In this document: positions 29,231-59,572 of the stretch, one piece after another
Position numbering within the stretch: position 1 is the stretch's first letter
Layout: every line of letters starts with the position of its first letter
Source: a virus
Lineage: Duplodnaviria > Caudoviricetes
IMG/VR virus record: IMGVR_UViG_3300027996_000034
Coordinates: 1-60,501 of that record
Reading direction: 5' to 3' (one strand)
Length of the DNA: 60,501 nt
The notes under the pieces: generated by a model
What the model saw: the letters and a program-made list of their open reading frames with translations, nothing else
Told to the model about the DNA's origin: nothing
Databases searched by the model: none
Program-made: the position numbers and the translations under genes

Positions 29231-30991
29231 TTATTTATTAAAGCGTCTTTTAAGTTCTTCCGTAACTGTGTCCATGTAAGCAGATGAAGTTTCGTAGTTA
29301 GAAGAATCATCAGATTCTTTTACTACTACTGTTTCGTTTATTTGCTCAGACGGATTATAAGCCCTTAGCTCACGGGTTGACCAGAAATGATCGATCTTGT
29401 ACTGTGTATCAAGAGTTCTCACCGATGCTTGAGCAGTAATAGAAGATTTTTGTGATTCGTTTATAGAATCCCAAGAACTTTTATATTTGCTCGGCATATT
29501 TTTTAGCCAATCGATTTTTGCTTCAGGCTCAACAAATACTGATTCCCATATTGCAGATGCATCAGTTGAACCGAACCACTCATTATTCTCAAATGTTCTA
29601 ATAACTTTCGCCTTAGTCTCATCATCAAATGATTTGTATTCAGTTCTCCTATCTTCATTTACAAAATGTAAGAAGTGAGTATTTGCAGAAGTTTCGTCCA
29701 CCTTTTGCTTCTTAGCGGATTCAACCAACGCTGAAATTTTCTCGTTTAATTCATTTTTGAATGTATTAGTTTCTATAATTAATTCATCAGCAGTTTCTTT
29801 AACTGTTTCTGATTCATTAATTGTTTCTCCAACATTTTTGGATTTGAAATTTTCATTCATTGTTTTAGAAACATAATCTTGGTATTTACCTAGATTTTCT
29901 ACATTATCTTTAACATACTCGGTATAATTAGCAACGGCATCAACACCTTCCATAACGTAATTAGAATATTCAATTACTTTATCTGTTTGTTCGTTTACAT
30001 AATCTTGATATCCGAAACGAGTATTTACATTTTCAGATATATGTTTAGAGTACTCAATGTTTTGATCGGTTTTAAGACCTACATATTCTGCATAATCTTT
30101 TACCTTTCCTAAATTTTCTATAATATAATCATTATGTGAAATAAGGCTATCAACATTTTCTGATAGATTCTCTACATAATTTCCGATTTGATTTACTCGT
30201 TTTGCAATAGCTTCTGAGTATTTAACTAAATCTGTATTTGCGGAAGCTTCATTTACCTTTTCAACTTCAGATTTTAATGAGTCAAAATTCTCTTTAACGA
30301 TTTTTGAATATTCGTTAAAATCTTCGACTGAAATAAAATTGCTGTTAGAATTAGACTCAGCTTCATTTATTGTTTCTTTTGGTGTAGTATTATCCATTGC
30401 TATTAATTCTTTTTGAATATCTGTATTAGTTTCTTCTATATATCCATTGATCTCGAAAATTCCTAGATTATCATCATCAACAAATCCATACTGTTCATTA
30501 ACTCGGTTGAGTTCTGCGTTTTCAAAACCAGGATCTGCAACTAAATCGTATGTAAATAATTTTTTAATTTTAACGTGGCCATTTTCTTGAACCACACCAG
30601 CAGCTCTACTAGAAATGTGTATTGGAATGCCACCATCAACAAGTGCTTGAGCTTGTTTTCCTGCGGTAGTATCTAATAACCGGATTTTTCCTCTAACAAC
30701 CTTGTTAGCTTTGTCATATGTTATTTCCTCAATAACATGAGATACATTTTGTAGAGAAATGTCAAATTGTTTTGGGTGATCTAATTCACCAAGAAGCTTA
30801 CCGCTTTTGAGTTTTTCTTGAAGACCTTCAATATGAGGCATCAACTCTTTCTCATCGTATATACGATTGTTCTTATTTTTTTTACCTATCTCAGAAAATA
30901 TTCCTTCTAATACATACTTGTCAGCGCCGGTTCCATTGGCTTCAAGTATACTAGTGGATCTTTCTAAGACTAATAATTTTGCGTCATTCAT
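29231..30991 (-). CDS. gp21: Prohead protease fused to scaffold/core (gp21-gp22-like)
   Basis: LEGIF..KNKNNRIY, LGELDHP, ISSRAAG, TYDLVADPGF, then ~400 aa acidic coiled coil. Confidence 0.9.
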   Translation of the reverse strand: MNDAKLLVLERSTSILEANGTGADKYVLEGIFSEIGKKNKNNRIYDEKELMPHIEGLQEKLKSGKLLGELDHPKQFDISLQNVSHVIEEITYDKANKVVRGKIRLLDTTAGKQAQALVDGGIPIHISSRAAGVVQENGHVKIKKLFTYDLVADPGFENAELNRVNEQYGFVDDDNLGIFEINGYIEETNTDIQKELIAMDNTTPKETINEAESNSNSNFISVEDFNEYSKIVKENFDSLKSEVEKVNEASANTDLVKYSEAIAKRVNQIGNYVENLSENVDSLISHNDYIIENLGKVKDYAEYVGLKTDQNIEYSKHISENVNTRFGYQDYVNEQTDKVIEYSNYVMEGVDAVANYTEYVKDNVENLGKYQDYVSKTMNENFKSKNVGETINESETVKETADELIIETNTFKNELNEKISALVESAKKQKVDETSANTHFLHFVNEDRRTEYKSFDDETKAKVIRTFENNEWFGSTDASAIWESVFVEPEAKIDWLKNMPSKYKSSWDSINESQKSSITAQASVRTLDTQYKIDHFWSTRELRAYNPSEQINETVVVKESDDSSNYETSSAYMDTVTEELKRRFNK

Positions 30992-31047: not shown

Positions 31048-32628
31048 TTATTCTTCTTCTGATGCCATATCATCGAGTTTCTTTTGTTCACGTTCCTTGA
31101 GCGTTTGATTTGATTTTATATCAGCCTCACTTAAGTCCATGAATCGTCGAATTAACCATTCAGAAGAGAAATATTTGATTTCGTTACCTTCAGGATCGAA
31201 GTCTACAAGACCATCTTTCATTGCGGTTACAAAGTCTATTCGTTTTTGAAGAAGTTCCATTTCTTTCATTTCTTCAAATATATTGTATTTGTTAAATTTA
31301 ACCCCAATCTGTGCTTTAAATGAATCATCATTCATTAAGTCAGGATAATCTAGAGTCATTTGGATCCATAGAGGTTTTACGATTATTTCTTGGAATGTTG
31401 ATCTTAATCTATTTATAAATCTACCAAATTTGATTTCATCTCGAGTCATTCCTTCAGCATTGATTTCCCATGATGGTGGGTTTTCAACATCAAAACGATT
31501 CATTGGAATTTTAGATACTCGTCTAAGATTTTCTTTAAAGTAATTTAAAGAACTTGTATCAGAAAGATCAGGACCATCACCACCGATTGTTTCGATTTGT
31601 GGAGAACCTGCGTCACCTTCAGGTAACCAATACTCTTTATTGAAAGGCATCATCGGACGACCATTTGTTTTCAATTCACCGCTATCATAATCAAAATCTA
31701 CTTGTTCTCGATAGTTTTGCATTAAAACACCAAGTGATTGTTTTGCTCTAGTTTTTGATTTACCACCAATTGGTATAATAAATTTAGTTTTGAATGATGA
31801 ATTAACAACCGCCCATATAATTCTAGAATGTTCCATAATTCTAAGAAGGTTAAATGATCTTATAAGTCTTTCAACATAAGAAATTCTAGTTGGAGAATTC
31901 ATATTTGCATATGATATGTAAATAATTTGAGAATCATAAAGAGATCTTGCTTTTGCAGGTATATCTTTAAATTGTTTCCAAACTCGTTTACCTTGATCGT
32001 CTAATCCAGGTTCTAATGTAATTGGATCTAGCTCTTTAAACCCTATTACATTTCGTTGTTCATTATCATATATTATCTCAAATGCGAGATATCCATCAAC
32101 TAGCCATTTTCTAAAATATGACCATGCCGTTATATCATTATTAAAACCAAAATATTGGTAAATTCGTTTATAATTGATTGATATAGCTCCTCTGATTTCT
32201 TCGACCTTTTCTTCTGCTAAAAGATCATCATCAAAAAGTATAGGATCTGCGAAATAGTTTTTATCATCATATACAATAACTTCATCACAAAGAGTGTCTA
32301 ATATTTCTTCAATTTCATCTTGTACTGCAAATCTTCGAAGTTCCTCTCGTTTCTTTGGATATGATTTATCAAATACTGATATAGATTTCTTTAATGCTAT
32401 ATCTGATAAAGCTAAGTTAGCAAATAATGCATAATCATCGTAATCTCCTCCAACTAAACCTCTTGGGTCATAAGTCCATCCGAACTGATCTTCAACAATA
32501 CCGACTGCTTGTGAATTACGAAGAACCATATCATCGTATTTCATACCAAATGAACTTAATTGTTTAAGTGCATTTGAGGCAACGAAACCTCTTCCTGAAG
32601 TATCATTCCTTTCTACAAATCCTGCCAT
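31048..32628 (-). CDS. gp20: Portal protein
   Basis: FRKWLVDGYLAFEI, FNLLRIMEHSRIIW, KEYWLPE, VSKIPMNRF, TRDEIKFGRFINRLR. Confidence 0.95.
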   Translation of the reverse strand: MAGFVERNDTSGRGFVASNALKQLSSFGMKYDDMVLRNSQAVGIVEDQFGWTYDPRGLVGGDYDDYALFANLALSDIALKKSISVFDKSYPKKREELRRFAVQDEIEEILDTLCDEVIVYDDKNYFADPILFDDDLLAEEKVEEIRGAISINYKRIYQYFGFNNDITAWSYFRKWLVDGYLAFEIIYDNEQRNVIGFKELDPITLEPGLDDQGKRVWKQFKDIPAKARSLYDSQIIYISYANMNSPTRISYVERLIRSFNLLRIMEHSRIIWAVVNSSFKTKFIIPIGGKSKTRAKQSLGVLMQNYREQVDFDYDSGELKTNGRPMMPFNKEYWLPEGDAGSPQIETIGGDGPDLSDTSSLNYFKENLRRVSKIPMNRFDVENPPSWEINAEGMTRDEIKFGRFINRLRSTFQEIIVKPLWIQMTLDYPDLMNDDSFKAQIGVKFNKYNIFEEMKEMELLQKRIDFVTAMKDGLVDFDPEGNEIKYFSSEWLIRRFMDLSEADIKSNQTLKEREQKKLDDMASEEE

Positions 32629-33339: not shown

Positions 33340-33813
33340 TTACTTAATTGTTTTGAAAAAATCTTCGGTTATTATTTTGAACTCCCATCCTTTTTTATTA
33401 CAGAATGCTTCAGCAAATTGAATTTTGCACATATTAGTAACATACATCTCGTATGCATATTTATAATTCTTAACAGACTTAACAGTCTTTCTTTTAGGTT
33501 TTTTAGGTTCTTTTAATTGAGCAGATGGCTTTATTTCGATTAGGTATTTTTTACCGCTAGACAGTTCTATAAAATAATCTGGAAAGTATTTATGTTCCTT
33601 TCCATCTAAACTATTTATATATGGGACTGTAACTGGTTCAGAAACCCATTTAACAACATCTAAAGTAGATTCACAGTACTTACAAAACTTATATTCCCAC
33701 GATGATCTATAAATTATAGGACCCTTTCCTATGTATTTTTTGCATTCGTTTATTGGGAAATAACCTTGCTTAAACTTTGATTTCCTCTTTGGCTTATTGT
33801 TTTTTATATTCAT
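33340..33813 (-). CDS. gp4: Head completion nuclease (TnsA-like)
   Basis: IIYRSSWE, WVSEP..PY, YFPDYF, LIEIKP, WEFKIITE. Confidence 0.92.
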   Translation of the reverse strand: MNIKNNKPKRKSKFKQGYFPINECKKYIGKGPIIYRSSWEYKFCKYCESTLDVVKWVSEPVTVPYINSLDGKEHKYFPDYFIELSSGKKYLIEIKPSAQLKEPKKPKRKTVKSVKNYKYAYEMYVTNMCKIQFAEAFCNKKGWEFKIITEDFFKTIK

Positions 33814-34175
33814 TATATTGAATAGATGCCTGCACCTTCTTCACCACCACCATTAATTCTGATAGTACCGCTATATTTTTTTGGATGTAATTTGTTCCAA
33901 CCTTTAGCATACCCCTTCTTTGCAATTTGAGTATAATATGCAAATGCATTTGTTGATTTTTCTGGATTGAATCGATCCCAATATTTGAATAAGTCCATCT
34001 GTGCGAAAGCAAGACAATCGCGTTTATCTTCAGGGTCTTTGTATTGTAATTTTCTTATTGCTCGTTCTGATAATAGAATAAGCATATCGATTGCATCTTT
34101 TGTTAGTTTTCCTTCTTCCTTCGATTTAATTATTTCAGGAACTAGGTTTTTATTTGTTACGTAGTGTACTGCCAT
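33813..34175 (-). CDS. gp55: Late-transcription sigma factor
   Basis: HYVTNK, FNPEKSTNAFAYYTQI. Confidence 0.88.
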   Translation of the reverse strand: MAVHYVTNKNLVPEIIKSKEEGKLTKDAIDMLILLSERAIRKLQYKDPEDKRDCLAFAQMDLFKYWDRFNPEKSTNAFAYYTQIAKKGYAKGWNKLHPKKYSGTIRINGGGEEGAGIYSI

Positions 34176-35792: not shown

Positions 35793-36578
35793 TTATATAT
35801 CTTTGATTTTCTTTTGAATAATATATTCGTTGTTGATATCACCAGCTCCACCGTTAGAAAATGCTTTAGCTTCGTTCTTAATTGTTCCGATAACATTATA
35901 ATTTTCGAACAAACCATCGTCAAGCATTCCATCAACTGCTTTTTTAACACCAGGCGATTCTTTATGATCCATATAATCGTCGAATATTATTAGGCCACCA
36001 GGATTAACTGTTGCTTCATAGTTTTTAAAGTCTCGCTCAACCATATGTTTTGCATGTGATCCATCTATAAAGAATACATCAGCACCACCTGCCTTTTCAA
36101 TTGCAGCACAAGATTCTTTAATGATTTTAGGGTTATCTGATAGTCCAACAAATTTTTCTAAGGTTTGACCTTCGCTGATATATTTTGCTGTGTTATTATC
36201 GAACATTTTTTCTTGACCGGATTTAGCTTTGAATGGATCGATAGAAATATGAGATTTACCTTTTTTATTTTGAAGCATTAAGCACATAGATCCTCCACAA
36301 AAACTTCCAATTTCAGCAAATGTTTTATAGTCTTCTCCGAGCATTTCTGATAATGGATATGTTATATGAAAGTGATGGTGAAACGTATTTCCTTCCATAT
36401 CTTCACTTATTGATTGAACCATTTCAGAAGATTTCTTATATGATGGATGTTTAAGAATATCAGATTCTGTAAACATTTTAGTAGAAGATTTACCTTCATT
36501 CAATCCCCATTGTTCTACATCAGGGAATTGTTTATCATGCATTTCATTAAGAAAGTCTTTAAATGATAGTAATTTCAT
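35793..36578 (-). CDS. Class I SAM-dependent methyltransferase (Methyltransf_24-like) with capsid-targeting-like leader
   Basis: FAEIGSFCGGS, ISIDPF, VFFIDGSH, VNPGGLIIFDDY; leader MKLLSFKDFLNE. Confidence 0.85.
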   Translation of the reverse strand: MKLLSFKDFLNEMHDKQFPDVEQWGLNEGKSSTKMFTESDILKHPSYKKSSEMVQSISEDMEGNTFHHHFHITYPLSEMLGEDYKTFAEIGSFCGGSMCLMLQNKKGKSHISIDPFKAKSGQEKMFDNNTAKYISEGQTLEKFVGLSDNPKIIKESCAAIEKAGGADVFFIDGSHAKHMVERDFKNYEATVNPGGLIIFDDYMDHKESPGVKKAVDGMLDDGLFENYNVIGTIKNEAKAFSNGGAGDINNEYIIQKKIKDI

Positions 36579-36587
36579 ATTTGTATA

Positions 36588-38864
36588 TTATTTGTTAAAT
36601 CTATATTTAAGACCTTCAGTTACTGCATCCATATACGCATTTGATGTTGATTCTTCTTGTGGCTCTTCTACTTGAATTTCATCACCAGTTTTTGTATCTG
36701 TAATATTTTCAGTATCTTCAACCTCTTCACCATCATCGTCGATTGTAACCTCTTTAGTTTCTTTAACTGATTCGTTTTTCATATCCGAATAAAATTCTTT
36801 GAACATCTTTTCAAGTCCATCAAATTTTGCTCCTTGATCTTTAACGAAATCTTTTGCTTTTGCAATAAAATCCTTTTCATCTTTGGCCTCTTTAGCAAGT
36901 AAATGAAGTTCACTCATTGCACCATCATTAACCATTCTAGTAAGATCTTCGTTAGTTGTTGATTCGTCTAGTAAAATTTTCTTTAATTTTGCAAGTTTCT
37001 TAGAATCCTTTTCTAGTTCTTTAGTTGCAGCTGCAATTTTGGAAGAAGCATCATCACCACCTTCAGTAGCATCTTCAGGAGATTCACCATCTTTTATTTT
37101 AGATTCTGGAGAATCTTCACCGTCTGGTGCTGAATCATCAGGTCCTTGAGTTTCATCCTCATCACCATCTGCAAGATCATCGATCATATCATCAATATCT
37201 TCTCCATCACCTTCTTCAACTTGTAAAGTTTTTTTGTTAAGTTTTTCATTAACACGTTTAGCATCTAAATAAAATTCATTATTCTCAAATGTACCAGTTC
37301 TTAAATACTTACTTAAATCTGTAAAGTAACCTAATTCCTCTGGTGTCAATTTAGATTTGATATATTTTGCAATTTCCGCCATTTCTTTTGTACGTAATTT
37401 AGAGGCTGCTCGATTTTTTGCATTTGAAGTTCCCATATACGGTGTTAATTCCGCATACATTTTTTTCAGAACATCATCATTTTCAAATTTCTTAACGATT
37501 GGTTCTAATATTGCTTTTTTATCAGCTAATTTATCAGCAGCTCTTTTAGCAGCTTTTTTAGCATCGGCCTTTTCGGCAGCATTTACTATTGCCTTTCCAG
37601 CAACGATTGCAGCAACCTGAGCACCGTTGACTAATGCAATAACACCGACAACACCTAATACAATTCCACCAGCTATTGTTAAAACACCAACGGCTTCATC
37701 AATATTTTCATCATCATTAACCACATCACTACCTTGTAGTCCTAAAAGAAATGCAGCAGTAGCATCTTCAAATGTTTTCTTTTTTGCTTCATTAACTGAT
37801 TCTCTAATTCCAAACTTAGCTAGAATTCGAATAGCAGGAACCGCATTATCTTGATCACCATCACCCATGATTACTAATTTACCATTAAGTGTTCCAAATT
37901 CGATCTTATTTATCGTTAGCTCCTTATATAACTTTTTATTTACCGGGTCTTTTATTTCGAATTCCCAATCATAATTATTTCCTTTATCTAGTTTTTTAAC
38001 TTCGAAACCTTCATTAACTTCATCGTCTTCGTTAATATCTTTTAGAAACTTAGTTGCATTTTCTTCAAATGTAAGTTTTGCTTTTTTAGCTTCATAAACT
38101 GCAGCTCCATCAGGATCATAAGAAAATACCGCAGTACCACCTCTTCCATCTAATGCGATTGCATCTTCATTTGGATCTAATTCTTCAGCAGCACCAGAAT
38201 CATCATATTCCGCTAGATCTTTAACTTTACCTATTGCAATAACATTCCAAGTATCACCATTGTAATCAGTAGCTTTATCACCGATTTTAACTTTCTTAAA
38301 AGGTTTGATTTTTTTACCTTCATTAATTGATTCTTCAGATTCATTTAGGAAGTAATAAACTTCAATCCCATAATCATCAACTCTTAATACGTTTAATTTT
38401 TTACTGTAAGTTATATTACCAGCAACTTCAGCAGATAATTTAGGAAGTTTCTTATGAACCATTTCCCAATCCGATCCTTTTTTGTATTTTTCATACTCAT
38501 CACCAGATTCACTATCAGTTGCTTTAACATCTTTTATATTTTTAACTTTAAAGAATTTAGCAATTTCCTTTTTAACCGCAGTAGGAAAACTTGATTCTTC
38601 AGCATTGTACACATCTTCATTAACTGATTCGTTAACTTTCTTTTCTATGGTTATAGTTTCTGCCATTTCTTGCATAACTTTATCTATTCTCCAAGGAACA
38701 ACACCGATAGATGTTAAATAAGTTCGTATAATAGATTCATTCTTTCCTTCACCAACAAGTTTCTGTACTAGCGGTTTTAAAGAACCTGGTCCATAAAAGT
38801 TATATTCGCCTTTAGTAACGAGATTTTCATTTACAAAATCTTCAAAGCTTTTTAATTTACTCAT
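36588..38864 (-). CDS. Modular putative internal-head polyprotein with ESVNE repeats and scaffold-like C-terminus
   Basis: Leader MSKLKSFEDFVNE; ESVNED/ESINEG/DEVNEG/ESVNEA; C-terminus 15/19 identical to the scaffold C-terminus. Confidence 0.7.
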   Translation of the reverse strand: MSKLKSFEDFVNENLVTKGEYNFYGPGSLKPLVQKLVGEGKNESIIRTYLTSIGVVPWRIDKVMQEMAETITIEKKVNESVNEDVYNAEESSFPTAVKKEIAKFFKVKNIKDVKATDSESGDEYEKYKKGSDWEMVHKKLPKLSAEVAGNITYSKKLNVLRVDDYGIEVYYFLNESEESINEGKKIKPFKKVKIGDKATDYNGDTWNVIAIGKVKDLAEYDDSGAAEELDPNEDAIALDGRGGTAVFSYDPDGAAVYEAKKAKLTFEENATKFLKDINEDDEVNEGFEVKKLDKGNNYDWEFEIKDPVNKKLYKELTINKIEFGTLNGKLVIMGDGDQDNAVPAIRILAKFGIRESVNEAKKKTFEDATAAFLLGLQGSDVVNDDENIDEAVGVLTIAGGIVLGVVGVIALVNGAQVAAIVAGKAIVNAAEKADAKKAAKRAADKLADKKAILEPIVKKFENDDVLKKMYAELTPYMGTSNAKNRAASKLRTKEMAEIAKYIKSKLTPEELGYFTDLSKYLRTGTFENNEFYLDAKRVNEKLNKKTLQVEEGDGEDIDDMIDDLADGDEDETQGPDDSAPDGEDSPESKIKDGESPEDATEGGDDASSKIAAATKELEKDSKKLAKLKKILLDESTTNEDLTRMVNDGAMSELHLLAKEAKDEKDFIAKAKDFVKDQGAKFDGLEKMFKEFYSDMKNESVKETKEVTIDDDGEEVEDTENITDTKTGDEIQVEEPQEESTSNAYMDAVTEGLKYRFNK

Positions 38865-46179: not shown

Positions 46180-47310
46180 TTAGAATAACGATAATGTATA
46201 CGCTAAGCTTCGGTTTAATCTTGGCATTCCGGATGGAATAACAATTCTATTTAATGGTTCGAGTATAAACATTTCAAATTGTCGTTCAATATCTATTTTT
46301 GGTGCTAATTGATATGGATATTCTCCTGGCAAATAACCAAATACATCACAAAATTGATCATCTGCATAATACCAACGAATTTTATCGCTTGTTTTTACAA
46401 GGTCAAAATTATTTTTTTGTGGTGAATTATTGACTAAATAGTTATGATACGCACCAGCTCGAACATGTATTGGACATCCTTTAGCGAGTTCAAATTCGTT
46501 TGTATCATTTAATACAAATTTATTGTAATCTCCGATTCTTCGATTAGATGATATTTGTTCTATATCGGCTAATTTGAATTGAGTCTTAATATCTTTAAGT
46601 ACTTGAGTTAATTCAGCAACAACATCGTTATCTAATCTATCTTTTGAAAATAGAAATTTTACGATATCAGTTAGTTTATCTCGACAGAAAGCCGGGGTTG
46701 ATGATTGTATAATTTCTAAACCTTTAGTCGATATGTATGTAAGAGGATCATAAGTTTTACCATCCTTCCAAACAATATTTTGAACATATTTCTTTTTTGA
46801 AACCCATATTGCATTATTTGCTATCGTCTCAAGTTCAAAATCTAAGAAGTTTTCAGAATTATAAGAATTTGCATAATCAGAAAGTACTTTTTTAATATAG
46901 TCTGCTAATCGATGTTTGTTAATTTGTAAAATGAAGTCTGTTATTTCGCCATCCCATTTACAAGATTCCATAACCTCTTCGAATACGATATATCCTGAAT
47001 CCGTATCTGTATATTTCCATACATGTCGTTTGAGCGGCTTAACCTCACTTAATCCCATTGTTTTATGAAGTGCAAAATCTTTATGCCAAAATTCTTTGAA
47101 GTATTTTTCAACACAACGTTCAGTATATTTTATTGCATCTTGGCCTTGAAGAGTTACTGTTTCAGCGATTACTGTGCTTCTAAAATGGAACCAGTCATTT
47201 GCAAATGCTCCATAAATAGAATTAATGCACAACTTTATAGCTTCTTGTAAGTTGAAACATCTAAGGCTTTCCTTTTCTAGACTCTGTATTTTAAGTTCTT
47301 TTTCAGTCAT
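46180..47310 (-). CDS. gp43: Family B DNA polymerase, C-terminal subunit (fingers half, palm motif C, thumb)
   Basis: KLCINSIYG, TLQGQ, YTDTDS, KKKYV, KGLEIIQSSTP. Confidence 0.93.
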   Translation of the reverse strand: MTEKELKIQSLEKESLRCFNLQEAIKLCINSIYGAFANDWFHFRSTVIAETVTLQGQDAIKYTERCVEKYFKEFWHKDFALHKTMGLSEVKPLKRHVWKYTDTDSGYIVFEEVMESCKWDGEITDFILQINKHRLADYIKKVLSDYANSYNSENFLDFELETIANNAIWVSKKKYVQNIVWKDGKTYDPLTYISTKGLEIIQSSTPAFCRDKLTDIVKFLFSKDRLDNDVVAELTQVLKDIKTQFKLADIEQISSNRRIGDYNKFVLNDTNEFELAKGCPIHVRAGAYHNYLVNNSPQKNNFDLVKTSDKIRWYYADDQFCDVFGYLPGEYPYQLAPKIDIERQFEMFILEPLNRIVIPSGMPRLNRSLAYTLSLF

Positions 47311-48098: not shown

Positions 48099-49118
48099 TT
48101 ATTCACTCTGAATTTTCAACGATGCTTTATGGATTGACTCATACATTGATTCAACCAATTCTTCAGTTAAGCCATGTTCTTTACCTTGTGCTATTCGACT
48201 TGTAAGGATTTGATTCCATCGATTCATCTGTAAAGGTAAGATGTTGTTATCTGATTTGTATGTTCCAATTTGTTTAGCAACTTGCATTCTTTCTGAAAGT
48301 GTACTTATCAATAATGAATCTAACTCATCGACTTTTCTTCTGTAGGGTGCAAGACCATCATCTTCAACTTCATGTTTTCCAAATTTTAATCCATCAACAA
48401 GGAATCTATATTGAGTTGGTGTTATTTGTTGTTCAGCATCAGTTATTGCATCTTCTGGATTTGAATGAACCTCAACCATCATACCATCAGCACCGAAATT
48501 TATTCCGCGTTGCGTGACGTGTTGAATTAACATTGGATTTCCAGCAATATGTGAAGGATCAATTAACATAGGAATGTTAGGCATCTTTCTTTTGAATGCA
48601 ACTGGAACGTGCCATCCAGGCATATTTCTATATTTTGTTTTTTCGAATGTTGAGAAACCTCTGTGAATTGCACCGATGTTTTTAACGCCTTTTGCCTGTA
48701 ACCTTTCAATTGCACCAATCCAAAGTGATAAGTCAGGATTCATTGGGTTCTTTACATAAATTGGAATGTCAGTACCTTCAAGTTCTTCAGCTATAGCTTG
48801 CATACTAAATGGATTTCCACTTGTTCTAGCACCAATCCATAACATATCAACTCCATGTCCAATAGCTAATTTTATATGAGCTGGTTCTGCAACTTCACAA
48901 CAGATTTTGAATCCGAATTTTTCTTTGACATCTTGAAGCCATTTTAAAGCATCTTCACCATGTCCTTCGAATGCACCTGGATTAGTTCTCGGTTTCCATA
49001 CTCCTGCTCGGAAATAATCTATTTTGATATTTTGTTTCGATAACCCAAGAGCAACTTTCATAAGTTGCTCTTTAGATTCAGCTGAACAAGGTCCAGCAAT
49101 ATGTGTGAATTCTGTCAT
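48099..49118 (-). CDS. Bifunctional DAHP synthase (I-beta) / chorismate mutase (AroQ-type, C-terminal)
   Basis: IAGPCSAES, RAGVWKPRT, WIGART, VKNP, IHRGF, DPSHIAG, MVEVH, DAEQQ; C-terminal RRKVDELD..LSERM..IGTYK..IHKAS. Confidence 0.93.
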   Translation of the reverse strand: MTEFTHIAGPCSAESKEQLMKVALGLSKQNIKIDYFRAGVWKPRTNPGAFEGHGEDALKWLQDVKEKFGFKICCEVAEPAHIKLAIGHGVDMLWIGARTSGNPFSMQAIAEELEGTDIPIYVKNPMNPDLSLWIGAIERLQAKGVKNIGAIHRGFSTFEKTKYRNMPGWHVPVAFKRKMPNIPMLIDPSHIAGNPMLIQHVTQRGINFGADGMMVEVHSNPEDAITDAEQQITPTQYRFLVDGLKFGKHEVEDDGLAPYRRKVDELDSLLISTLSERMQVAKQIGTYKSDNNILPLQMNRWNQILTSRIAQGKEHGLTEELVESMYESIHKASLKIQSE

Positions 49119-50179
49119 TACGCTTTAGGTTTTAAGTAAGATTCTAATCTGTTTTCTAAGAATGCGTATTCAAAGTCAAGATCTTTCATTTCAGGATTTT
49201 CATATTCTTTAATAAAGTCAGTTCCATATCCAGCGATATCAATATCATATTTAGGATCCATGAAACTTGTTTTACCTTTTGCAACTCTAGCGATGTTTTT
49301 AACATCAGCCCATAGTTCAAGTAAATTACCTTCGAACTTTTGAGATAAGTAAGTTTCAACAATCCATAAGATGTAAGGTGTTGGATGTGTTCTTCCTGTT
49401 ACTTTGAATTTTTTGATTCCATGAACTTCATTATAGTAAGCCATAGATTGTGGAGCAATAAATCTTGAACGAGTCCATTCAACAGGATTTCCAATGTTTC
49501 TTATTTGTGTACAGATACCCATTGGATATCTTTTGAATTTAGAAGCATCTTTATCAGTTTTACATTGAGCATGTTCGTTGTAACATTGAACTCGATCAGC
49601 ACAATCAGTAATACAATATTCATTAGCAAGTAATTCAGTTTCGATTCCTAATGCATCGCCTTCTTTTTTCAAAAGAGCTAAGGATTCGAAGTTACGATTT
49701 AATGCAACATCCAAACAAACTTTATTGATGTTTGGGTTTCTTCGTTTTAATTCTCTTAATTGATAAGGAGTATTTGCACGATAAATTGTAGAGATCTCAA
49801 CTGGAATATCAGAATATTCAGCAATTATTTCCATTGACAAAGGATGTGCTACTGTTAATCTTCCAATTCCAATTCGTTTAAGATATGCTAGAGTTTCTTT
49901 GACATGTTCAATATCAATTTTAGCTTTATCAACGATTGGAGTATTGTCTGTGTAGTTAACGAGAATTCCTGCTTCATTGTAATCTTTTACTGATTGTTCG
50001 AAAGATTCTAGTGAAACATCTGGAACTCTAAAGTCAGGACGAGCAGATCCAAAGATTTTGATTTTTCTGATAGAGCCGTATACTTCATGTACTTGGACTT
50101 CAGAATATTTTTCGTTCAATTCCTTAAATTTTGAAGGAAGAACTGGATCATAGTTTGATCCGACCATTAGTTCGATCAT
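49118..50179 (-). CDS. Peptidase U32-family protein (putative Fe-S hydroxylase)
   Basis: TIM-barrel pattern LTVAHP..VEIST..LNRNF..ELLANEYCITDCADRVQC..C..FIAPQ..GIKKFKVTGR (cf. U32 KIEGR). Confidence 0.75.
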   Translation of the reverse strand: MIELMVGSNYDPVLPSKFKELNEKYSEVQVHEVYGSIRKIKIFGSARPDFRVPDVSLESFEQSVKDYNEAGILVNYTDNTPIVDKAKIDIEHVKETLAYLKRIGIGRLTVAHPLSMEIIAEYSDIPVEISTIYRANTPYQLRELKRRNPNINKVCLDVALNRNFESLALLKKEGDALGIETELLANEYCITDCADRVQCYNEHAQCKTDKDASKFKRYPMGICTQIRNIGNPVEWTRSRFIAPQSMAYYNEVHGIKKFKVTGRTHPTPYILWIVETYLSQKFEGNLLELWADVKNIARVAKGKTSFMDPKYDIDIAGYGTDFIKEYENPEMKDLDFEYAFLENRLESYLKPKA

Positions 50180-52126: not shown

Positions 52127-53509
52127 CTATAATTCTTTTTTTAATTTTTGGATCTCAATTTCAAGATCTAAATGTTTGCGTTTATGTTTTTTCCGTTCTG
52201 TATATAATTCTGTTAAGATTGATTTCATAGCACTTGGTTTTTTATCAAATACTGCTCCAGTAACTGCTACTATTTTAGTTGGGTCTTTTCTATATATTTC
52301 TAATTTTTCTTGGCTATGTTCTTTCTTTATGAAGGATTCAGGAGATATATTTATTTGTCTCATTATTGATGGGTATAGAGAAGCAAAATCAAAACACGCA
52401 GCGCCTTTAAAGAATCCAGTTTCTGGTTCTTTAACATATGCACCTTCATATCCTTGTCTTTCTCCAGGTCTAATAAATTCATCGGCTACGACACAATCTC
52501 TTTCATAATATTTTTTCCAAAGAAATGCTTCAGTAATATTAACTGCAGATGTACATTTGTACATTGATATGTTGCACAATACTGATACTGATAACACCGC
52601 ATTTATTGTTGCAATTTTTTCATGGATTTCTGTTACCAACGCTGAATCAATCGCATTATAGAACACGTATTTGTCATAATCATTCTCGTAGAGTTCCTGT
52701 AAGGTACCATTGTATTTAATCTTATTAATACCTAATACTTGTTTTGCAACGAAATCTAGTGTATTATTTTCTTTAACTGCAACAGTTCTATCAAATTGTC
52801 GATAAATTTGGAGATAGTCCATCATTGCAATATGTAATGGAATCATATCTCGATTAACTTTATTTGATACACTGGCTTTTGCACAATCAATACCAAGTTT
52901 TCTACATCGATTATAAATGTATTTCCAGTCAAATCCTATGAAATTCCATCCAGTTACAAATGCCATGTGTGGTAGCATTTTAGTAATGAATGTGTATAGC
53001 ATATTATATTCATCATCAAAGCAAACATATTTAAAATCCCAATCACCATAATCTTTCATATGGTTTCGAACATCATCAAATATTTTTTTTTGTTCTTCTG
53101 GTGATATTGGCTTCCATCCTAATACAGCAACTTGTTTATTTTGCATTGCAATTGACATACATGTGATTCGTTCTCTAGCAACCTCCGGGTTTGGAAAACC
53201 ATCTATTACCTCAGTCTCAATATCAACCGAATATATTTTTGGAAAGTTTAATGCAGATAATTGTTCAATATCAGAATTGTTATGAATAAACTCATAGATA
53301 GACCATTTGTTTAAATACTTTGCTCGAACTTTTTTAACAGGCTTACCATCCCAATTTCTATATTTAGGATCTTTATCTTTATCTGTTTCCGAACATATCG
53401 CCCAATTCTTTACATCTTCAATTTTATAATCATTTACTTTTACATCACCATTTTCATCGAAGTATGATATTCTTAAATCATTAAATCTACTTTCTATATC
53501 TAATATCAT
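52127..53509 (-). CDS. gp43: Family B DNA polymerase, N-terminal subunit (3'-5' exonuclease + motif A)
   Basis: DIETE, TGWNFIGFD, YNAID, YEGAYV, FDFASLYPSIM. Confidence 0.93.
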   Translation of the reverse strand: MILDIESRFNDLRISYFDENGDVKVNDYKIEDVKNWAICSETDKDKDPKYRNWDGKPVKKVRAKYLNKWSIYEFIHNNSDIEQLSALNFPKIYSVDIETEVIDGFPNPEVARERITCMSIAMQNKQVAVLGWKPISPEEQKKIFDDVRNHMKDYGDWDFKYVCFDDEYNMLYTFITKMLPHMAFVTGWNFIGFDWKYIYNRCRKLGIDCAKASVSNKVNRDMIPLHIAMMDYLQIYRQFDRTVAVKENNTLDFVAKQVLGINKIKYNGTLQELYENDYDKYVFYNAIDSALVTEIHEKIATINAVLSVSVLCNISMYKCTSAVNITEAFLWKKYYERDCVVADEFIRPGERQGYEGAYVKEPETGFFKGAACFDFASLYPSIMRQINISPESFIKKEHSQEKLEIYRKDPTKIVAVTGAVFDKKPSAMKSILTELYTERKKHKRKHLDLEIEIQKLKKEL

Positions 53510-54246: not shown

Positions 54247-56742
54247 TTATTCTCCCAATGCTTCGATATCCCATTGAATTCTTTCTAATGGATCTTCATC
54301 ATTTGTTCTGTTCTTCTTCACCCAATCAACAAGACCTCTTTCCATAGTAGCATTTTGTGCCATATCATATGAATGTTTCCATCCATCGCCGGAAGCCATA
54401 TCTTCAATCCATTGATCATATTTCTTTTGATTCCATTTTACTGGCTTTATCTTCTTAGCATGGGGTCCATTACCTAAAGTTGATTTGATTGCATTGTAAT
54501 GATTCGGGACAAATACATCCACTGCCCAATCTTCGTCTCTTTTATTACCATTCCAATACTTAATCTTCTTTCTGAATCTTTTTAATTCGTAATCAGCATT
54601 TTCAATCTTTTCTTTTCTAGTAATGCCACCTCGTTTATATCCAAATGATAACTTCATATCATCTAATATATCTGGATCTGTTTCGAAATGAAGGTCTTTA
54701 ATATCAACATTATCATATTGGCCTTCATTAACTGATTCTTCATTAACATTAACTCCCTTTCTTTTAGCATACTTTTCAACATCTCTTAAAAGACCTAGTA
54801 GTTTATTTTTATCTAAATCTTCTTCATCGTTATTCAGTTCTTTTTGAAGATTATTCATTAAACTCTTCATGTATTTTTTTACACCGGAATCTAAATCACC
54901 CTTATCTATGTTGGTTTGTATAAGGTTAACAAGTTCTAAAACATCTTCCTTTTTTAGATTTTTAGCAGCTTGTTTATCCTTGAACTTCTTTTTATAGTGT
55001 CGAACTACGTCTCCCCAACTATCTCCAGGAAAGAACGCTCCTGGACTGACAATCATGCCGGGACCCATCACAGCAAATATTACACCTGCCATTAACCCAA
55101 CTCCTCCAGCTAAAGCTAATAAAGGTTGCCACCATTCAAAACCTTCATTAACTGAGTCATGAGCTTGTATTGAAGTTTCGATTGCTTCTTTAGCCTTTTT
55201 AATATCACCATTAAAGTATGCTTTTGCTAATTGATACAAAACTATATCTGATGGTATTTTACCAGATTTTCCAATTTTAGAAATTTCATCATCACCTTTA
55301 CCTTCATTAACTGATTCTGTTATAGAGTTACCAGTCTTTTTTACTTGATGTCCATCCATTGCATAGAATCGCATATCTTGGAAGTCAACTAAATATTGCT
55401 CATCCGATTCATAGCTTATTAATAGTCCTTTTTCACCTTTCTTAATAGTCATTTTAGTTCCAAAATAATCGAAGGTTTTTGTTGGTGCAATCCACTCAAC
55501 CTCTTCGTATTTTTTACCTTCATTAACTGATTCTTTCAAATCTGTTAATTTTATTACACGTTTCTTACCATCGAAAGAAACAAAATAAGATTTATCATCT
55601 GCTGCCGTTAAGTGATATCCGAATGATTTACCCCATACCTCTTTTGCCTTTTTAAGATCTGAGCCATAAAAATATTTTTCAAGACCCGATGTACTTTTTA
55701 TTGTTTTAGGAACTTTTACCTTGCCTTCATTTAAAGATTCTCCTACAAATGCATTGAACTTCAAAAAATTGTAAATATTTTTTGCTTGTTTTTCATTTTC
55801 CTCTTCATCATCAGTTAATTCGCTTGATGCTGCTAAATCACCAGAACCAGTTTCCTGAGTTGAAAATTCTGCTTGAGTTCCAGGATTTCCAGGCAATGAA
55901 ACATTACCCATTCCATTAACACTTCCTGGAGTTGCCATTGCATTATTTTCTTCAATCGCATATCTCATAGCTTCTGCATATGCAATTGCTTCTTCAAGAT
56001 GTTTATTTGATGATTCTTTTACCGCCATACCACCATTCTTTTTCATATATTTCTTAACGGTGGATCTCCATTTTGTATCAACATTTGTAACTGTAACTCG
56101 ATTACCAACTTGATCGCCTATACCAATTGCAGAATTTTCAATATCTAAATCAAATTGACGTGCACTTTCTTCATCAGGGAATTCAAATATTACACTTAAA
56201 CCTTCATCGACCGATTCATCAAACAATGTTTTTGCACGTGGAAATGTTAAAGATTTACCAAGTTCTCTATCATGATCCTTTTTCATCTCTAGATAATTCC
56301 AAGGAGATATCCAACCAGTTTCTTGCGCTAATTGAACTGCAAGATCAAAGGGTTTCATAGGCTTTGATAAAGTAACATTGAATCTAGGTGAAGAGTATCT
56401 ACCTTCCATATCACCTTCCACTATTTTATATTTTCCTTTTGGGATAACTTTAATTCGTTCGAAAGGTTTTCCAATTCCAACTATACTTACCGTTTTATGA
56501 TCTTTGTATCTTTTTTCTGCGTTCTTTTTTATTGGATCATCATATGCTGCTTCATCTACCGAATCTTCTAATTTATTTGGTAGCGTTTCTTCTGGAGTTT
56601 CTGCGTAATCTTTCAAATCGGCTTCTTTCTTTTTGGATAAATCTCTTATTTTCTGATCAACCGTGGATGCATCAACTTCACCTCGCTTAACTGCTAAGGC
56701 TAGTCCGAATAATTTCCGTTGAGCTTTTGATACTGCTGGCAT
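54247..56742 (-). CDS. Modular putative internal-head polyprotein: DUF3008-like N-terminus, ESVNEG repeats, embedded copy of the MCP N-arm
   Basis: MPAVSKAQRKLFGLALAVKRGE start; seven (E/D)S(V/L)(N/D)E(G/A) motifs; residues 265-302 are 26/38 identical to MCP residues 43-80. Confidence 0.7.
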   Translation of the reverse strand: MPAVSKAQRKLFGLALAVKRGEVDASTVDQKIRDLSKKKEADLKDYAETPEETLPNKLEDSVDEAAYDDPIKKNAEKRYKDHKTVSIVGIGKPFERIKVIPKGKYKIVEGDMEGRYSSPRFNVTLSKPMKPFDLAVQLAQETGWISPWNYLEMKKDHDRELGKSLTFPRAKTLFDESVDEGLSVIFEFPDEESARQFDLDIENSAIGIGDQVGNRVTVTNVDTKWRSTVKKYMKKNGGMAVKESSNKHLEEAIAYAEAMRYAIEENNAMATPGSVNGMGNVSLPGNPGTQAEFSTQETGSGDLAASSELTDDEEENEKQAKNIYNFLKFNAFVGESLNEGKVKVPKTIKSTSGLEKYFYGSDLKKAKEVWGKSFGYHLTAADDKSYFVSFDGKKRVIKLTDLKESVNEGKKYEEVEWIAPTKTFDYFGTKMTIKKGEKGLLISYESDEQYLVDFQDMRFYAMDGHQVKKTGNSITESVNEGKGDDEISKIGKSGKIPSDIVLYQLAKAYFNGDIKKAKEAIETSIQAHDSVNEGFEWWQPLLALAGGVGLMAGVIFAVMGPGMIVSPGAFFPGDSWGDVVRHYKKKFKDKQAAKNLKKEDVLELVNLIQTNIDKGDLDSGVKKYMKSLMNNLQKELNNDEEDLDKNKLLGLLRDVEKYAKRKGVNVNEESVNEGQYDNVDIKDLHFETDPDILDDMKLSFGYKRGGITRKEKIENADYELKRFRKKIKYWNGNKRDEDWAVDVFVPNHYNAIKSTLGNGPHAKKIKPVKWNQKKYDQWIEDMASGDGWKHSYDMAQNATMERGLVDWVKKNRTNDEDPLERIQWDIEALGE
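54722..55533 (-). repeat. Dispersed 17-nt in-frame repeat GAATCAGTTAATGAAGG
   Basis: Exact at 54722, 55301, 55517; one mismatch at 55142; one-mismatch copies also at 37786, 38317, 38614. Confidence 0.9.
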
Positions 56743-56744
56743 GG

Positions 56745-57323
56745 TTATTTCATATTTTTTAAGTAATCTTTTGCTAATTGAGACAATACTGATAATGTAG
56801 CTTTCATATCATCCATATGGTCATATTCACCAGCTTTATATACTTGCTCTAAATAATCTTCCATATCTTCCATTACCGTATCGGAATTCTTCCAAGTTTT
56901 TTGGATATTAGATTTACCTTCATTAATCTCAGATTCATCCATTGCAATTGATTCAGATAAAGATGGTATATTTCTATATTTTGATTCATTAACTTCAGCC
57001 GGTAAAGAATCTCGTTTGTTTATCATTTCAAATACTCTTTGGCCATATTTTGAAAGACTATAATATGTAGTTCCTTTCTTTTCAAATGTTGTGAAAAACT
57101 TTTGATTTCTTTTAAACCATTTCGCTTTATTAACTTTTGCACCTCCACGGTCCTCTTCAAGTCTAATTAAATGATTATGTAAATCTTCTTCAGTTACATA
57201 ATTTTTTCCAACGTATTTAATAATAGTATCTCTAACATTTGCACCGTTTTCATTTATACGTATTCTATTATAATCACCGTACTTTCTTTTTACTTGGTGA
57301 CGTCCTTCATTAAGTTCTTCCAT
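56745..57323 (-). CDS. Hypothetical late protein with LNEG/VNES/INEG motifs
   Basis: 192 aa; late motif at 57343. Confidence 0.7.
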   Translation of the reverse strand: MEELNEGRHQVKRKYGDYNRIRINENGANVRDTIIKYVGKNYVTEEDLHNHLIRLEEDRGGAKVNKAKWFKRNQKFFTTFEKKGTTYYSLSKYGQRVFEMINKRDSLPAEVNESKYRNIPSLSESIAMDESEINEGKSNIQKTWKNSDTVMEDMEDYLEQVYKAGEYDHMDDMKATLSVLSQLAKDYLKNMK

Positions 57324-57351
57324 TTTGGTTTGTTTATTTTAATTATATATC

Positions 57352-59046
57352 TTACTGACTGTGACTTAATTCATTTTTTAATTGGTCATAAAATTTATGT
57401 TCAGCAGTTGGTGTTAATTTTTTAAATTCTTTTTCATTATCAGCGATCAAAGCATCTCTTACTTGAGTTGCACTTATGTTATTAGAATTTCTTTTAATTT
57501 CTGATGTTTGAAATTCTGGTAATACATTAGCTTCCTTACCATACAACTTAATCATACGATTATAATCTGATATTCTATCACTTCCAGTGCCCCATAGTAC
57601 AGGTTCATATTCTGGGCGTAATGCATTTAAAATTTGATCTAAAAACCCAGTTTGAGATTCCTTAACGGCATCAATAAATTTATATTGTTTTGCTATATCC
57701 ATCCAAATTTTTAAAATAGTCTCATTTTCAAATGGTGTTTTTTTACCACTTTTAGATCTAACTTGGATAACAACCACTGGTAAATTATTCTTAGCATGTA
57801 ATTGTCGAAGAACTTTAATATGTCCAAGTGTTGGTGGTTGGAATCGACCAACTAATATATTAACCGATTGTTTACCAGGTTCTGAATGTTCTAAACTTAA
57901 TTTACCTTCATATAAATTAGATTCTAATAATGCTCGTTTTTGATATTTGCCATAGTAATAATCTTCAAATGTCGGGATCGATTCCTTAGGTTTTGGTTTA
58001 TCAATGGTTCGATCAGATATCATGGCGATGATTTTGTTTATTTCGAATTTGGTATTGTTATCTATTAATATAGAAGTTTTCTTACGTTTTTTAGTAAATG
58101 TCCCTAAGAATAATTTGAATATTTCTTTATTGATTTGAGATTCTTTAATCCATTTAACGGCATTTTCATCAGTAACATTTTTTAAATTTATTCCGAAGTC
58201 TGGAATATCTTTTGCAAAATCAGGTCCATCTAAATCTTCCATACCATCATATTTAGATGCATTTTTAGACATATATTTAGCATAAAGTGCACTAATTAAA
58301 TTCAATATCCTATGGGCCTTATCTTCACCCTTAGGTTTGAATTTATCAAAATTTACCGTGTTCATAAAGGCTAGAACATCTTGTAATGCTATAGAATAAG
58401 TATCTGATGCATTCTGATCTTTAGCTTTAGTAGCTTTAATCATCGGATTTAGTATTTTAGTACTAACCGTTTCGTGTAATCGATCTAGGAATTTCATAGT
58501 TAAACTCTCTGATATGTTTTTGTTCGCTTTAAGTATATCATATATATCATTATTGCCTTTATCTAATGATTCGAGAATATCATCTATTTGATTCAATTTT
58601 AATCTCCCGAAATATATAACTGATATGCCATCTAAGTTTAAATCACTAGCCCATCTTTCTAATACAACATCATCTTCAATAAATCGTATTTTAGAAGATG
58701 ATTCGATAACTCGAATTTCCTCTAATAAAATTTTGTTAGTTTTTGGAGAATATCTAAAAGCAAATCTATAACTTTCTGGTATTAAACCAATTTTATACAT
58801 ATCTAAAATTTGATGTATTGTTCTATCTATCGGATTTTCATATATGCTTTGCAAAGATCTATCTATAATTGATATTTCTTTATTACTCGTTCCCTTAAAA
58901 TATTTTAAGTTACCTTCAACTATTTGTGCATGTAAAGATGTATCCGAAGATTTCTCTTTAACGACGATAAACTTCTTCAAAAGGCCATGAATATAATCAC
59001 GGCCTTTTGAATTGTATATGGTTAGTAAGTCGTTTATTTGTCTCAT
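57352..59046 (-). CDS. Protein with C-terminal HIGH-family nucleotidyltransferase (cytidylyltransferase/NMNAT-like) domain
   Basis: GRFQPPTLGH, GSDR, ISATQVR; N-terminal ~370 aa unassigned. Confidence 0.8.
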   Translation of the reverse strand: MRQINDLLTIYNSKGRDYIHGLLKKFIVVKEKSSDTSLHAQIVEGNLKYFKGTSNKEISIIDRSLQSIYENPIDRTIHQILDMYKIGLIPESYRFAFRYSPKTNKILLEEIRVIESSSKIRFIEDDVVLERWASDLNLDGISVIYFGRLKLNQIDDILESLDKGNNDIYDILKANKNISESLTMKFLDRLHETVSTKILNPMIKATKAKDQNASDTYSIALQDVLAFMNTVNFDKFKPKGEDKAHRILNLISALYAKYMSKNASKYDGMEDLDGPDFAKDIPDFGINLKNVTDENAVKWIKESQINKEIFKLFLGTFTKKRKKTSILIDNNTKFEINKIIAMISDRTIDKPKPKESIPTFEDYYYGKYQKRALLESNLYEGKLSLEHSEPGKQSVNILVGRFQPPTLGHIKVLRQLHAKNNLPVVVIQVRSKSGKKTPFENETILKIWMDIAKQYKFIDAVKESQTGFLDQILNALRPEYEPVLWGTGSDRISDYNRMIKLYGKEANVLPEFQTSEIKRNSNNISATQVRDALIADNEKEFKKLTPTAEHKFYDQLKNELSHSQ

Positions 59047-59047: not shown

Positions 59048-59521
59048 TTATGAGGTCATCGTAGTAAACCAAGACTCATCTGCTGAAGCTGAAAAATTCT
59101 TTTTGATATATTTTTCCATATCTTTGTATCCTTCAGGATCTTTCTTTTGCATAATATCTAATACCTTTCCTAATCCCATTTGCATGACTTTATCGTCAAA
59201 TTCTTCATGGTCTTCGTTTTTAGCAGCCTCTTCAATTTCAATTTCGATTTCTTCTTCACCTTCAGATGAATCTTTCATTTTTTTAGCAAGCGTAGCGGTT
59301 TTCTTTTTCTTTGCTTTATTTTCAGCTTCTTTCTTTCCATCTTCAGCTTCTGCATCTAATTCTTCTGGTGGTGTAGTTGGGCCTTTTGAAGCATCAGCCA
59401 TATCATCAGCTAATTGTTCTTCGTCATCTTTAGGTGCACCCATTTTGTTGATAGTTTTTTCAATTTCTTTAGCAGTTTTTGATTCTGTTAAGAATTGATC
59501 ATACGACTTAATGTGTTTCAT
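59048..59521 (-). CDS. Acidic/basic low-complexity protein with capsid-targeting-like leader
   Basis: MKHIKSYDQFLTES; late-type motif at 59545. Confidence 0.7.
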   Translation of the reverse strand: MKHIKSYDQFLTESKTAKEIEKTINKMGAPKDDEEQLADDMADASKGPTTPPEELDAEAEDGKKEAENKAKKKKTATLAKKMKDSSEGEEEIEIEIEEAAKNEDHEEFDDKVMQMGLGKVLDIMQKKDPEGYKDMEKYIKKNFSASADESWFTTMTS

Positions 59522-59572
59522 TTTAGTTAGTTTTTTTAGTTTTATTATATATTCGATTCAATTTTAAAGGTT

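Follow-up and report, generated by a model that had tools for sequence, protein, structure and literature searches.

In bacteriophage T4, the prohead protease gp21 cleaves after glutamate in L/I-X-E (PMC9026906, section 2.5), degrading the scaffold at many sites and removing short N-terminal capsid-targeting leaders from internal proteins (PMC9026906, sections 2.5-2.6). Positions 4 and 7 of the leader are reported to be important for targeting and positions 8 and 10 for processing, and a T4 review suggests that the leader lets T4-like phages load various proteins into the head (PMC9026906). An Asp at leader position 10 has been shown to block processing (PMC9026906, section 2.6). In the giant myoviruses SPN3US and phiKZ, many head proteins are processed by the prohead protease at Glu residues and proteins are ejected into the host; the SPN3US motif is A-X-E, and all identified cuts, except that of the protease's own propeptide, are described as removing N-terminal propeptides to leave one mature fragment (PMC10052503). 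Here we describe an open reading frame (ORF) of 831 amino acids (aa) at 54247..56742 (-) in the IMG/VR virus record IMGVR_UViG_3300027996_000034, a 60.5-kb stretch of DNA (60,501 nucleotides, nt; hereafter the window). As judged from its sequence, this target ORF joins about nine small, unrelated modules in one gene, most of them separated by a recurrent hexapeptide. We consider it reasonably probable that the protein is a precursor targeted to the head and that the prohead protease recognises these junctions. We are less confident that the pieces are injected and work as effectors.

The pattern [ED]S[VLI][ND]E[GA] occurs seven times in the target (all coordinates (-)): as DSVDEA in linker 1 (aa 60-65, 56548..56565), ESVDEG in linker 2 (aa 176-181, 56200..56217), ESLNEG in linker 3 (aa 335-340, 55723..55740), DSVNEG in linker 6 (aa 529-534, 55141..55158) and ESVNEG in linkers 4 (aa 404-409, 55516..55533), 5 (aa 476-481, 55300..55317) and 7 (aa 669-674, 54721..54738). 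Cuts after each Glu would give pieces of 64, 116, 159, 69, 72, 53, 140 and 158 aa; the seven sites, of the L/I(V)-X-E type and here V/L-(N/D)-E, stand at module borders. An earlier note on this DNA had divided the protein into dissimilar blocks at seven (E/D)S(V/L)(N/D)E(G/A) motifs. All seven motifs were recovered, the coordinates given there corresponding to the scissile positions within 1-2 nt, and its seven block sizes (the list of 116 to 158 aa) were reproduced exactly, with the 64-aa first piece in addition; the blocks indeed bear no mutual likeness and have different relatives. From the target's own composition only 0.0026 sites are expected by chance, and in 20,000 shuffles one site arose in 48 and two or more in none. 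In a six-frame scan of the window the strict pattern was found nine times, always in minus-strand coding frames (seven times in the target and twice in the ORF at 36588..38864), and not once in the three plus-strand frames. Because the codons for S, V/L and G/A vary from site to site and the flanking sequence is unrelated, the constraint acts on the peptide; a DNA-level repeat as the source of the motif was ruled out on the same grounds. Linkers 4 and 5 are encoded by an identical 21-nt stretch (55513..55533 and 55297..55317, (-)), and modules could be exchanged through this microhomology. The earlier note did not list an eighth junction, which lies at aa 264/265, directly before a stretch resembling the capsid protein.

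The behaviour of these blocks in other phages was followed in 227 metagenomic relatives, comprising 107 proteins of near length (457-1290 aa, each covering 8-52% of the query) and the best 120 of 170 shorter proteins found. The ranges over which the near-length relatives align sort into classes that match the blocks delimited by the motif. Module 8 (query aa 669-831) was found in about 85 of the 107, the capsid-protein-like stretch (aa 262-342) in 20, module 7 (aa 521-668) in eight, module 2 (aa 58-185) in five, module 3a (aa 176-244) in three and module 5 (aa 404-482) in a single protein, P0089. Among the 359 internal ends of BLAST high-scoring segment pairs from the 227 relatives, 181 fell within 6 aa of a predicted cut (10.8% at random) and 246 within 10 aa (16.8% at random); 16 of the 359 stop at aa 262, next to the eighth junction. 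When all relatives were compared with one another, 13.8% of 5054 ends lay within 5 aa of [VLI][ND]E[GA], against 3.8% at random. The nearest relative, P0001, matches the target through aa 405, with one V-to-L change inside linker 4, and similarity is lost directly past this linker. In the 107 near-length relatives we counted 119 strict sites in 72,258 aa, with at least one site in 63 proteins; their logo reads x-E-S-V-N-E-(A/G)-K, and the linker peptide is kept across relatives whose modules share only 45-70% identity. A search of viral contigs with the whole target recovered four loci only. Thus the blocks are real, independently moving modules that are shuffled at the junctions. The earlier note had held that invariant content in relatives lacking the motif would speak against its proposal; content proved variable, and the motif is kept.

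Module 1 (aa 3-57, 56572..56736 (-)) matches DUF3008 (Pfam PF11450, E 1.3e-5; 25.7 bits, above the gathering cutoff of 24), a domain present in 32 of the 107 near-length relatives and always aligned from subject residue 1 (query aa 1-62). Module 2 (aa 65-180, 56203..56550 (-)) is predicted to be a compact alpha/beta domain: the AlphaFold2 (AF2) model has a predicted local distance difference test score (pLDDT) of 85.9 and a predicted template modelling score (pTM) of 0.78, and both linker ends fall below pLDDT 50 around a confident core. Stand-alone relatives of module 2 (130-147 aa) end 2-4 residues beyond the domain, whereas fused forms run on into the linker. Module 8 (aa 674-831, 54250..54723 (-)), the most widespread of all, is modelled as an all-alpha domain (pLDDT 88.5, pTM 0.57). 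Modules 2 and 8 are found at 50-90% identity across many phages. The earlier note had asked whether each module is predicted to fold by itself or whether all form one integrated structure; modules 2 and 8 are each confidently predicted to fold alone, and it is for these two only that an integrated structure is contradicted.

Between them lie module 3a (aa 181-264, 55951..56202 (-)), the stretch like the presumed mature N-terminus of the capsid protein, preceded by Glu (aa 261-302, 55837..55962 (-)), and an internal leader-like stretch, aromatic-x-x-F-V-x-E, which abuts linker 3 and was identified by pattern only (aa 329-335, 55738..55758 (-)). These are followed by module 4 (aa 340-408, 55519..55725 (-)), module 5 (aa 409-480, 55303..55518 (-)), module 6 (aa 481-533, 55144..55302 (-)), for which almost no relatives were found, and module 7 (aa 534-673, 54724..55143 (-)). 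A stretch of P0089, a 554-aa Methyltransf_24 protein of another phage, shares 99% identity with module 5. Module 7 contains a Gly-rich hydrophobic segment at about aa 540-571, where the Kyte-Doolittle score over 19 residues peaks at 2.34, and then a helical part; in a phmmer search of the PDB, aa 568-656 matched 3mlg, a tandem chimera (E 9.3e-8), and aa 572-643 showed a weak likeness to 2bo3, Helicobacter pylori HP0242 (E 0.002).

Known effector domains were matched by no module, either in the Pfam scan of the target or in the PDB, Foldseek and VIA searches of modules 2 and 8. Pfam returned DUF3008 only, with no effector, MuF, portal or peptidase domain, and ten long relatives gave DUF3008 and a sub-threshold Zeta_toxin match only. 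For module 8, the PDB profile search gave no match and the Atlas no usable one, Foldseek returned nothing at E<=0.001 from the PDB and BFVD, and the best VIA wide Z was 4.4; for module 2, Foldseek found nothing in the PDB and the best VIA wide Z was 2.7. A profile covering module 2 and its flanking modules was searched against 1.84 billion representatives; of the 53 proteins that reached E<=0.001, only about 15 match at the positions of module 2.

The window encodes a T4-type head module, with a gp20-type portal (31048..32628; Pfam Portal_T4, 2.2e-70), an S77 prohead protease fused to a scaffold-like region (29231..30991 (-); Pfam Peptidase_S77 9e-11, PHROG head maturation protease 2e-38) and a gp23-type major capsid protein (27495..29201 (-); Pfam Gp23, 3.2e-36). 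The S77 enzyme is the only clear protease in the window. Tripeptides of the form [VIL]NE are concentrated in five ORFs, namely the protease-scaffold (9 observed, 0.6 expected), the 758-aa ORF at 36588..38864 (9 against 0.8), the target (6 against 0.8), a 192-aa ORF just upstream of it (4 against 0.2) and a methyltransferase (2 against 0.3, both within the first 30 aa); the other 48 ORFs together hold 21, where about 16 are expected. In 81 aligned N-termini of capsid proteins, the last Glu before the conserved body stands in L-Y-E|N, L-N-E|N/S or V-N-E|S, and the presumed maturation site of the capsid protein in the window is L-Y-E|N at aa 42-45. On account of these sequences we place the presumed maturation site in the same class as the linkers. 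All 81 capsid proteins also start M-x-L-I-N-E; the L-I-N-E at aa 3-6 may mark another cut, six residues into the protein, or may contribute to targeting. The head cargo that the earlier note had proposed is partly supported by independent comparative evidence, in an architecture fitting T4 L/I-X-E, in the link to the S77 protease at 29231..30991 and in the analogy with T4 internal proteins.

T4 ipIII and ipII (NC_000866) have a ten-residue N-terminal leader that ends in F-I-A-E. Stand-alone relatives of modules 2, 5, 7 and 8 start M-K-x-x-(K/P)-(T/L)-(F/Y)-x-x-F-(V/I/L)-x-E, with the key spacing of the T4 IPII/IPIII capsid-targeting sequence, and some have six consecutive residues in common with it; within the target, the leader-like residues at aa 329-335 are a match of pattern only. 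In stand-alone forms of module 8, the domain begins directly past the leader or past a following L-N-E-G. We sorted 153 distinct Met-start N-termini into 29 with a strict leader, 32 with a loose one, 19 with DUF3008, nine with the capsid-protein-like stretch and 64 unclassified, many of the last being visibly variants. Most modules with known relatives come from families that are encoded elsewhere by single genes with a T4-type leader. In the window, the strict leader is found on three of 62 coding-strand ORFs (the 758-aa ORF, the methyltransferase and the ORF at 59048..59521). In G005, a 246-kb relative with terminal repeats, it is found on 24 of 297 coding-strand ORFs and on none of 40 on the other strand. 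These 24 are mostly small and lie in five clusters (for example 48337..49684, 56030..57688, 91977..95669 and 237911..241267), one of them being a cytidylyltransferase, and linker-type sites number only three in the whole of G005. From its many leader ORFs and few linker sites it appears that the same families are single leader-bearing genes in one phage and polyproteins in another, and the predicted internal-protein repertoire of G005 would be far larger than that of T4.

The target carries in addition a look-alike of the capsid protein. Over aa 261-302 it shares 62% identity with aa 39-80 of the capsid protein (BLASTP, E 4e-12), which comprise the presumed cleavage site and the 36 residues with which the presumed mature protein begins. 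Searched in related records, the look-alike was matched in 21 of 23, and twice in 13 of 23, where the second match, besides the capsid protein, is an ORF 22-27 kb away. These second ORFs typically have the order DUF3008, Glu plus look-alike, a Lys-rich run and an F-x-x-F-x-x-F-(V/I) tail. Inspected by eye, pairs of capsid protein and look-alike shared indels in G001 only, and strict co-variation was not seen. One may speculate that the look-alike docks to the shell or to the protease. The locus itself is conserved: in all four relatives compared, a leader-bearing small ORF is followed by a cytidylyltransferase ORF, a 192-aa-type ORF, the DUF3008/look-alike gene, dUTPase and polymerase. Since the syntenic gene there is only 78-296 aa long and the order of the locus is the same, the target is an expanded form of a conserved small gene, with modules 2 and 3a inserted and modules 4-8 appended. 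A similar neighbourhood is present in cyanophage S-SM2, where a cytidylyltransferase with a leader-like N-terminus and gp186 precede a 157-aa DUF3008 protein without the look-alike stretch.

Upstream of the target, separated by 2 nt, lies the 192-aa ORF (56745..57323 (-)), which itself starts in linker-like fashion, M-E-E-L-N-E-G, and is probably co-transcribed with the target in a two-gene operon. It is preceded by a 564-aa ORF (57352..59046 (-)), in which an uncharacterised N-domain of 375 aa is joined through L-Y-E-G (nt 57904..57915) to a cytidylyltransferase-like domain. This enzyme has a weaker PHROGs match to nicotinamide-nucleotide adenylyltransferase (E 3.3e-5). In G005 and S-SM2, the targeting-type leader sits directly on the cytidylyltransferase (G005 150639..151217; L122 1358..2584). 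Next comes the 157-aa ORF with a T4-type targeting leader (59048..59521 (-)), which has a promoter-like word upstream at 59545..59553.

That word, RATATATAR, occurs 19 times in the window (10.2 expected), 17 times on the coding strand, and about ten copies lie 15-35 nt before the start codons of the portal, protease, sheath, neck and other structural genes. Three copies (12541, 31018, 57343) have one identical 16-nt form; they precede the genes for the protease and the tail sheath and the ORF of 192 aa, the last at a distance of 20 nt (57343..57351 (-)). The T4 late promoter is TATAAATA. Given this and the presence of a gp55-like late sigma factor (33813..34175 (-); phrog_234, E 2e-10), we infer that RATATATAR is a late promoter. 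In the relatives G003 and G004 the word or a near variant is found on the orthologous 192-aa-type and 157-aa-type ORFs. A second word, CATATAATA, was seen seven times (2.3 expected), ahead of the dUTPase, clamp-loader, exonuclease and other genes and also ahead of the gp55-like sigma factor gene (34212). A scan for sigma-70 promoters and terminators was uninformative.

Two further ORFs carry both leader and junctions. The 758-aa ORF (36588..38864 (-)), in the head and neck gene block, resembles a second polyprotein: it has a targeting leader, a Gly-rich hydrophobic segment, a long acidic region and [VIL]NE at nine sites, of which three are linker-type. Its last 19 aa and the C-terminus of the protease-scaffold share 79% identity (E 3e-5), and it is probably a second head-core polyprotein with a docking tail in common with the scaffold. 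The Methyltransf_24 methyltransferase (35793..36578 (-)) may be packaged in the head, as its first 30 aa contain a targeting leader and a second site, L-N-E-G. The leader of P0089 is the same as that of this enzyme, and P0089, its ortholog in another phage, is the protein that contains module 5 of the target. The leader-bearing methyltransferase is reminiscent of DarB of phage P1.

From these observations, we propose that the target is a late-expressed precursor joining about nine small, independently folding modules. The precursor would enter the prohead core, for which the capsid-protein-like stretch, the internal leader-like residues at aa 329-335 and DUF3008 are candidate routes. There the S77 prohead protease would cut after the Glu of each (V/L/I)-(N/D)-E|(G/A) and probably after Glu264 as well, and the released pieces of 6-19 kDa would be retained as internal head proteins and go out with the DNA. 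Entry into the prohead, cleavage, retention and ejection are all steps that we infer.

Several observations weigh against this proposal. The target has no T4-type N-terminal targeting leader, its N-terminus being DUF3008. The gene sits amid replication and nucleotide-metabolism genes (dUTPase, DNA polymerase and ribonucleotide reductase are nearby), and in G003 the gene syntenic with the target has CATATAATA, the second word, directly upstream. The cytidylyltransferase and methyltransferase, which are tied to the same system, would serve in the cytoplasm too. In relative G001, the scaffold has two [VIL]NE where 0.8 are expected, and the linkers vary, as E-S-V-V-(N/T/S)-E. The strongly conserved E-S (P5-P4) and G/A (P1') of the linker go beyond the T4 rule and are seen neither at the nine sites of the scaffold nor at the L-Y-E|N of the capsid protein; for this reason, a factor besides the protease may constrain the linker. 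Finally, word-based selection of candidates could have favoured motif-bearing proteins among the relatives, although the E-values rest on whole modules.

In one rival reading, the chain is never cut. The target would then be a multidomain protein in which the hexapeptides are vestigial leader ends left by gene fusion and kept as flexible joints and as microhomology for recombination. The linker does resemble a leader end plus second site in the stand-alone relatives (F-V-N-E-S-V/L-N-E-G), the similarity to P0001 breaks exactly at a linker, and two sites have the same 21-nt word. A vestige should decay, however, whereas the linker peptide is kept through synonymous changes and across modules of 45-70% identity, and predicted disorder at the linker ends, together with a site class found in scaffold and capsid protein, fits a protease substrate. 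We regard an uncleaved protein as unlikely. An equally small chance is given to a precursor that is cut by the prohead protease as a core- or scaffold-like component of assembly, with DUF3008 and the look-alike acting in head assembly or in the timing of capsid cleavage and the pieces being expelled or inert. Such a role would suit a DUF3008/capsid-protein-like unit that is syntenic in all four relatives examined and a second look-alike copy besides the capsid protein in 13 of 23 related records; moreover, the T4 core proteins gp22, gp67 and gp68 are cut up and mostly exit the head (PMC9026906, section 2.5). Modules 2 and 8, in contrast, are confidently folded, of the size of T4 internal proteins and too large to exit like scaffold peptides, and an assembly factor would not usually differ so freely in its modules from one phage to another that is nearly identical.

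That the target is a cytoplasmic polyprotein, cut by a host or another phage protease and unrelated to the head, seems very improbable to us. The neighbouring dUTPase, DNA polymerase and ribonucleotide reductase genes and the enzymes within the same junction system would agree with it. But no other credible protease was found in the 60.5-kb window of a genome of probably 250 kb or more, the leaders of the stand-alone relatives are of the T4 capsid-targeting type, and the promoter-like word is held in common with head and tail genes. We therefore favour a precursor that is targeted to the head and cut there. A wider picture is offered tentatively, as rather less likely than not to hold: a clade of marine T4-like giant phages may have built a combinatorial cargo system on the principle of the T4 internal proteins. 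In it, dozens of small orphan domains would each bear either a targeting leader or a protease-site linker, the linker would be both release site and the recombination joint by which modules move between polyprotein genes, and the conserved DUF3008 protein would anchor arrays to the head by mimicking the capsid cleavage site and the mature N-terminal arm.

The phage itself is a marine giant phage, T4-like by its head, tail and replication gene matches. The window has 31% G+C, its genes are essentially all on the minus strand, and the complete genome is probably 250 kb or more, of which the record covers 60.5 kb. A tail sheath, a large terminase and a baseplate protein are also encoded, as are SbcCD, a DnaB-like helicase, UvsX, ribonucleotide reductase and dUTPase. 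The nearest deposited capsid proteins are those of an uncultured 462-kb phage (49.7% identity), Lak phages, Tenacibaculum phage pT24 and Sphingomonas phage PAU; in IMG/VR, relatives were found on 550 contigs, of which the best 80 reach 429 kb. The family-B DNA polymerase is split into genes for an N-terminal and a C-terminal part (52127..53509 and 46180..47310 (-)), about 5 kb apart, and the N-terminal part is a separate gene in all four relatives examined too. Ribonucleotide reductase, a 3-deoxy-D-arabino-heptulosonate 7-phosphate (DAHP) synthase/chorismate mutase gene and a Peptidase_U32-like gene lie between the halves. A RimK-like ATP-grasp protein (22921..24381 (-); Pfam RimK, 7e-29) is encoded between the tail and head genes.

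The fusion of DAHP synthase and chorismate mutase adjoins the marginal member of the Peptidase_U32 family (48099..50179 (-) for the pair). The latter protein (49118..50179) reaches 22.6 bits against a Peptidase_U32 cutoff of 22.4, and its PHROG match is to 'peptidase' (E 9e-62). It was considered as a processing protease and rejected on account of the marginal U32 match and the adjoining gene. The U32 proteins TrhP and RlhA are prephenate-dependent RNA hydroxylases, and we take the protein to be a hydroxylase-type enzyme; in view of these family members, the pair may act in the modification of nucleic acid bases.

Proteins delivered from the head act before any phage gene is expressed and are thus prime candidates for counter-defence and host takeover, yet they are normally found only through virion proteomics of cultured phages. 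In uncultured marine giant phages, a large and fast-shuffled body of orphan domains is singled out by two short sequence marks, the E-S-V-N-E-(G/A) junction and the T4-like leader, and becomes a defined, testable list of candidates. If the wider picture holds, injected proteins, which are candidate anti-defence factors, could be read from sequence in uncultured phages. Capsid targeting as known from T4 would also extend to polyproteins, and the stretch resembling the capsid protein suggests that there may be a second way of targeting the head.

Set against known systems, the target is closest to IPI, IPII, IPIII and Alt of T4, which combine a capsid-targeting leader with gp21 cleavage; a T4-type portal, S77 protease and gp23 are present here too, and IPI-III (8-20 kDa) compare in size with the predicted pieces (6-19 kDa). 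In T4, however, there is one leader per gene, whereas here many cargo-like modules stand in one chain with internal sites, and this chain, unlike T4 internal proteins, starts with DUF3008 and holds within it a copy of the capsid protein's presumed mature N-terminus. Variable internal-protein loci with a common leader were reportedly described in T-even phages by Repoila et al. in 1994. The Dar proteins of phage P1 resemble the proposed cargo in being packaged in the head and acting on entry; they differ in having no sequence relation to the target, another targeting route and no polyprotein form. P1 DdrB is described as processed before packaging (PMC5512222). Polyvalent proteins (Iyer et al. 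2017, PMC5512222) have, like the target, unrelated domains in one chain that are shuffled, and packaging and delivery with DNA have been proposed for them; they contain recognisable effector, MuF, portal or peptidase domains, with an in-built metallopeptidase where processing is proposed, while none of these domains was found in the target and its junctions fit a separate T4-type head protease. The small P3 residue of SPN3US and phiKZ sites (A-X-E or S/A/G-X-E) is replaced by V/L/I at all seven sites here, and the one mature fragment per protein described for SPN3US (PMC10052503) contrasts with the several folded modules predicted from one chain. With RNA virus polyproteins the target has in common a single product with repeated protease sites; the proteases and biology are unrelated, and cutting is proposed here inside the assembling capsid. 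In the open-access main texts searched, no published description of such an array was found. The release of several folded, shuffled modules from one chain by the head protease would thus be new, and would extend the principle known from the T4 internal proteins.

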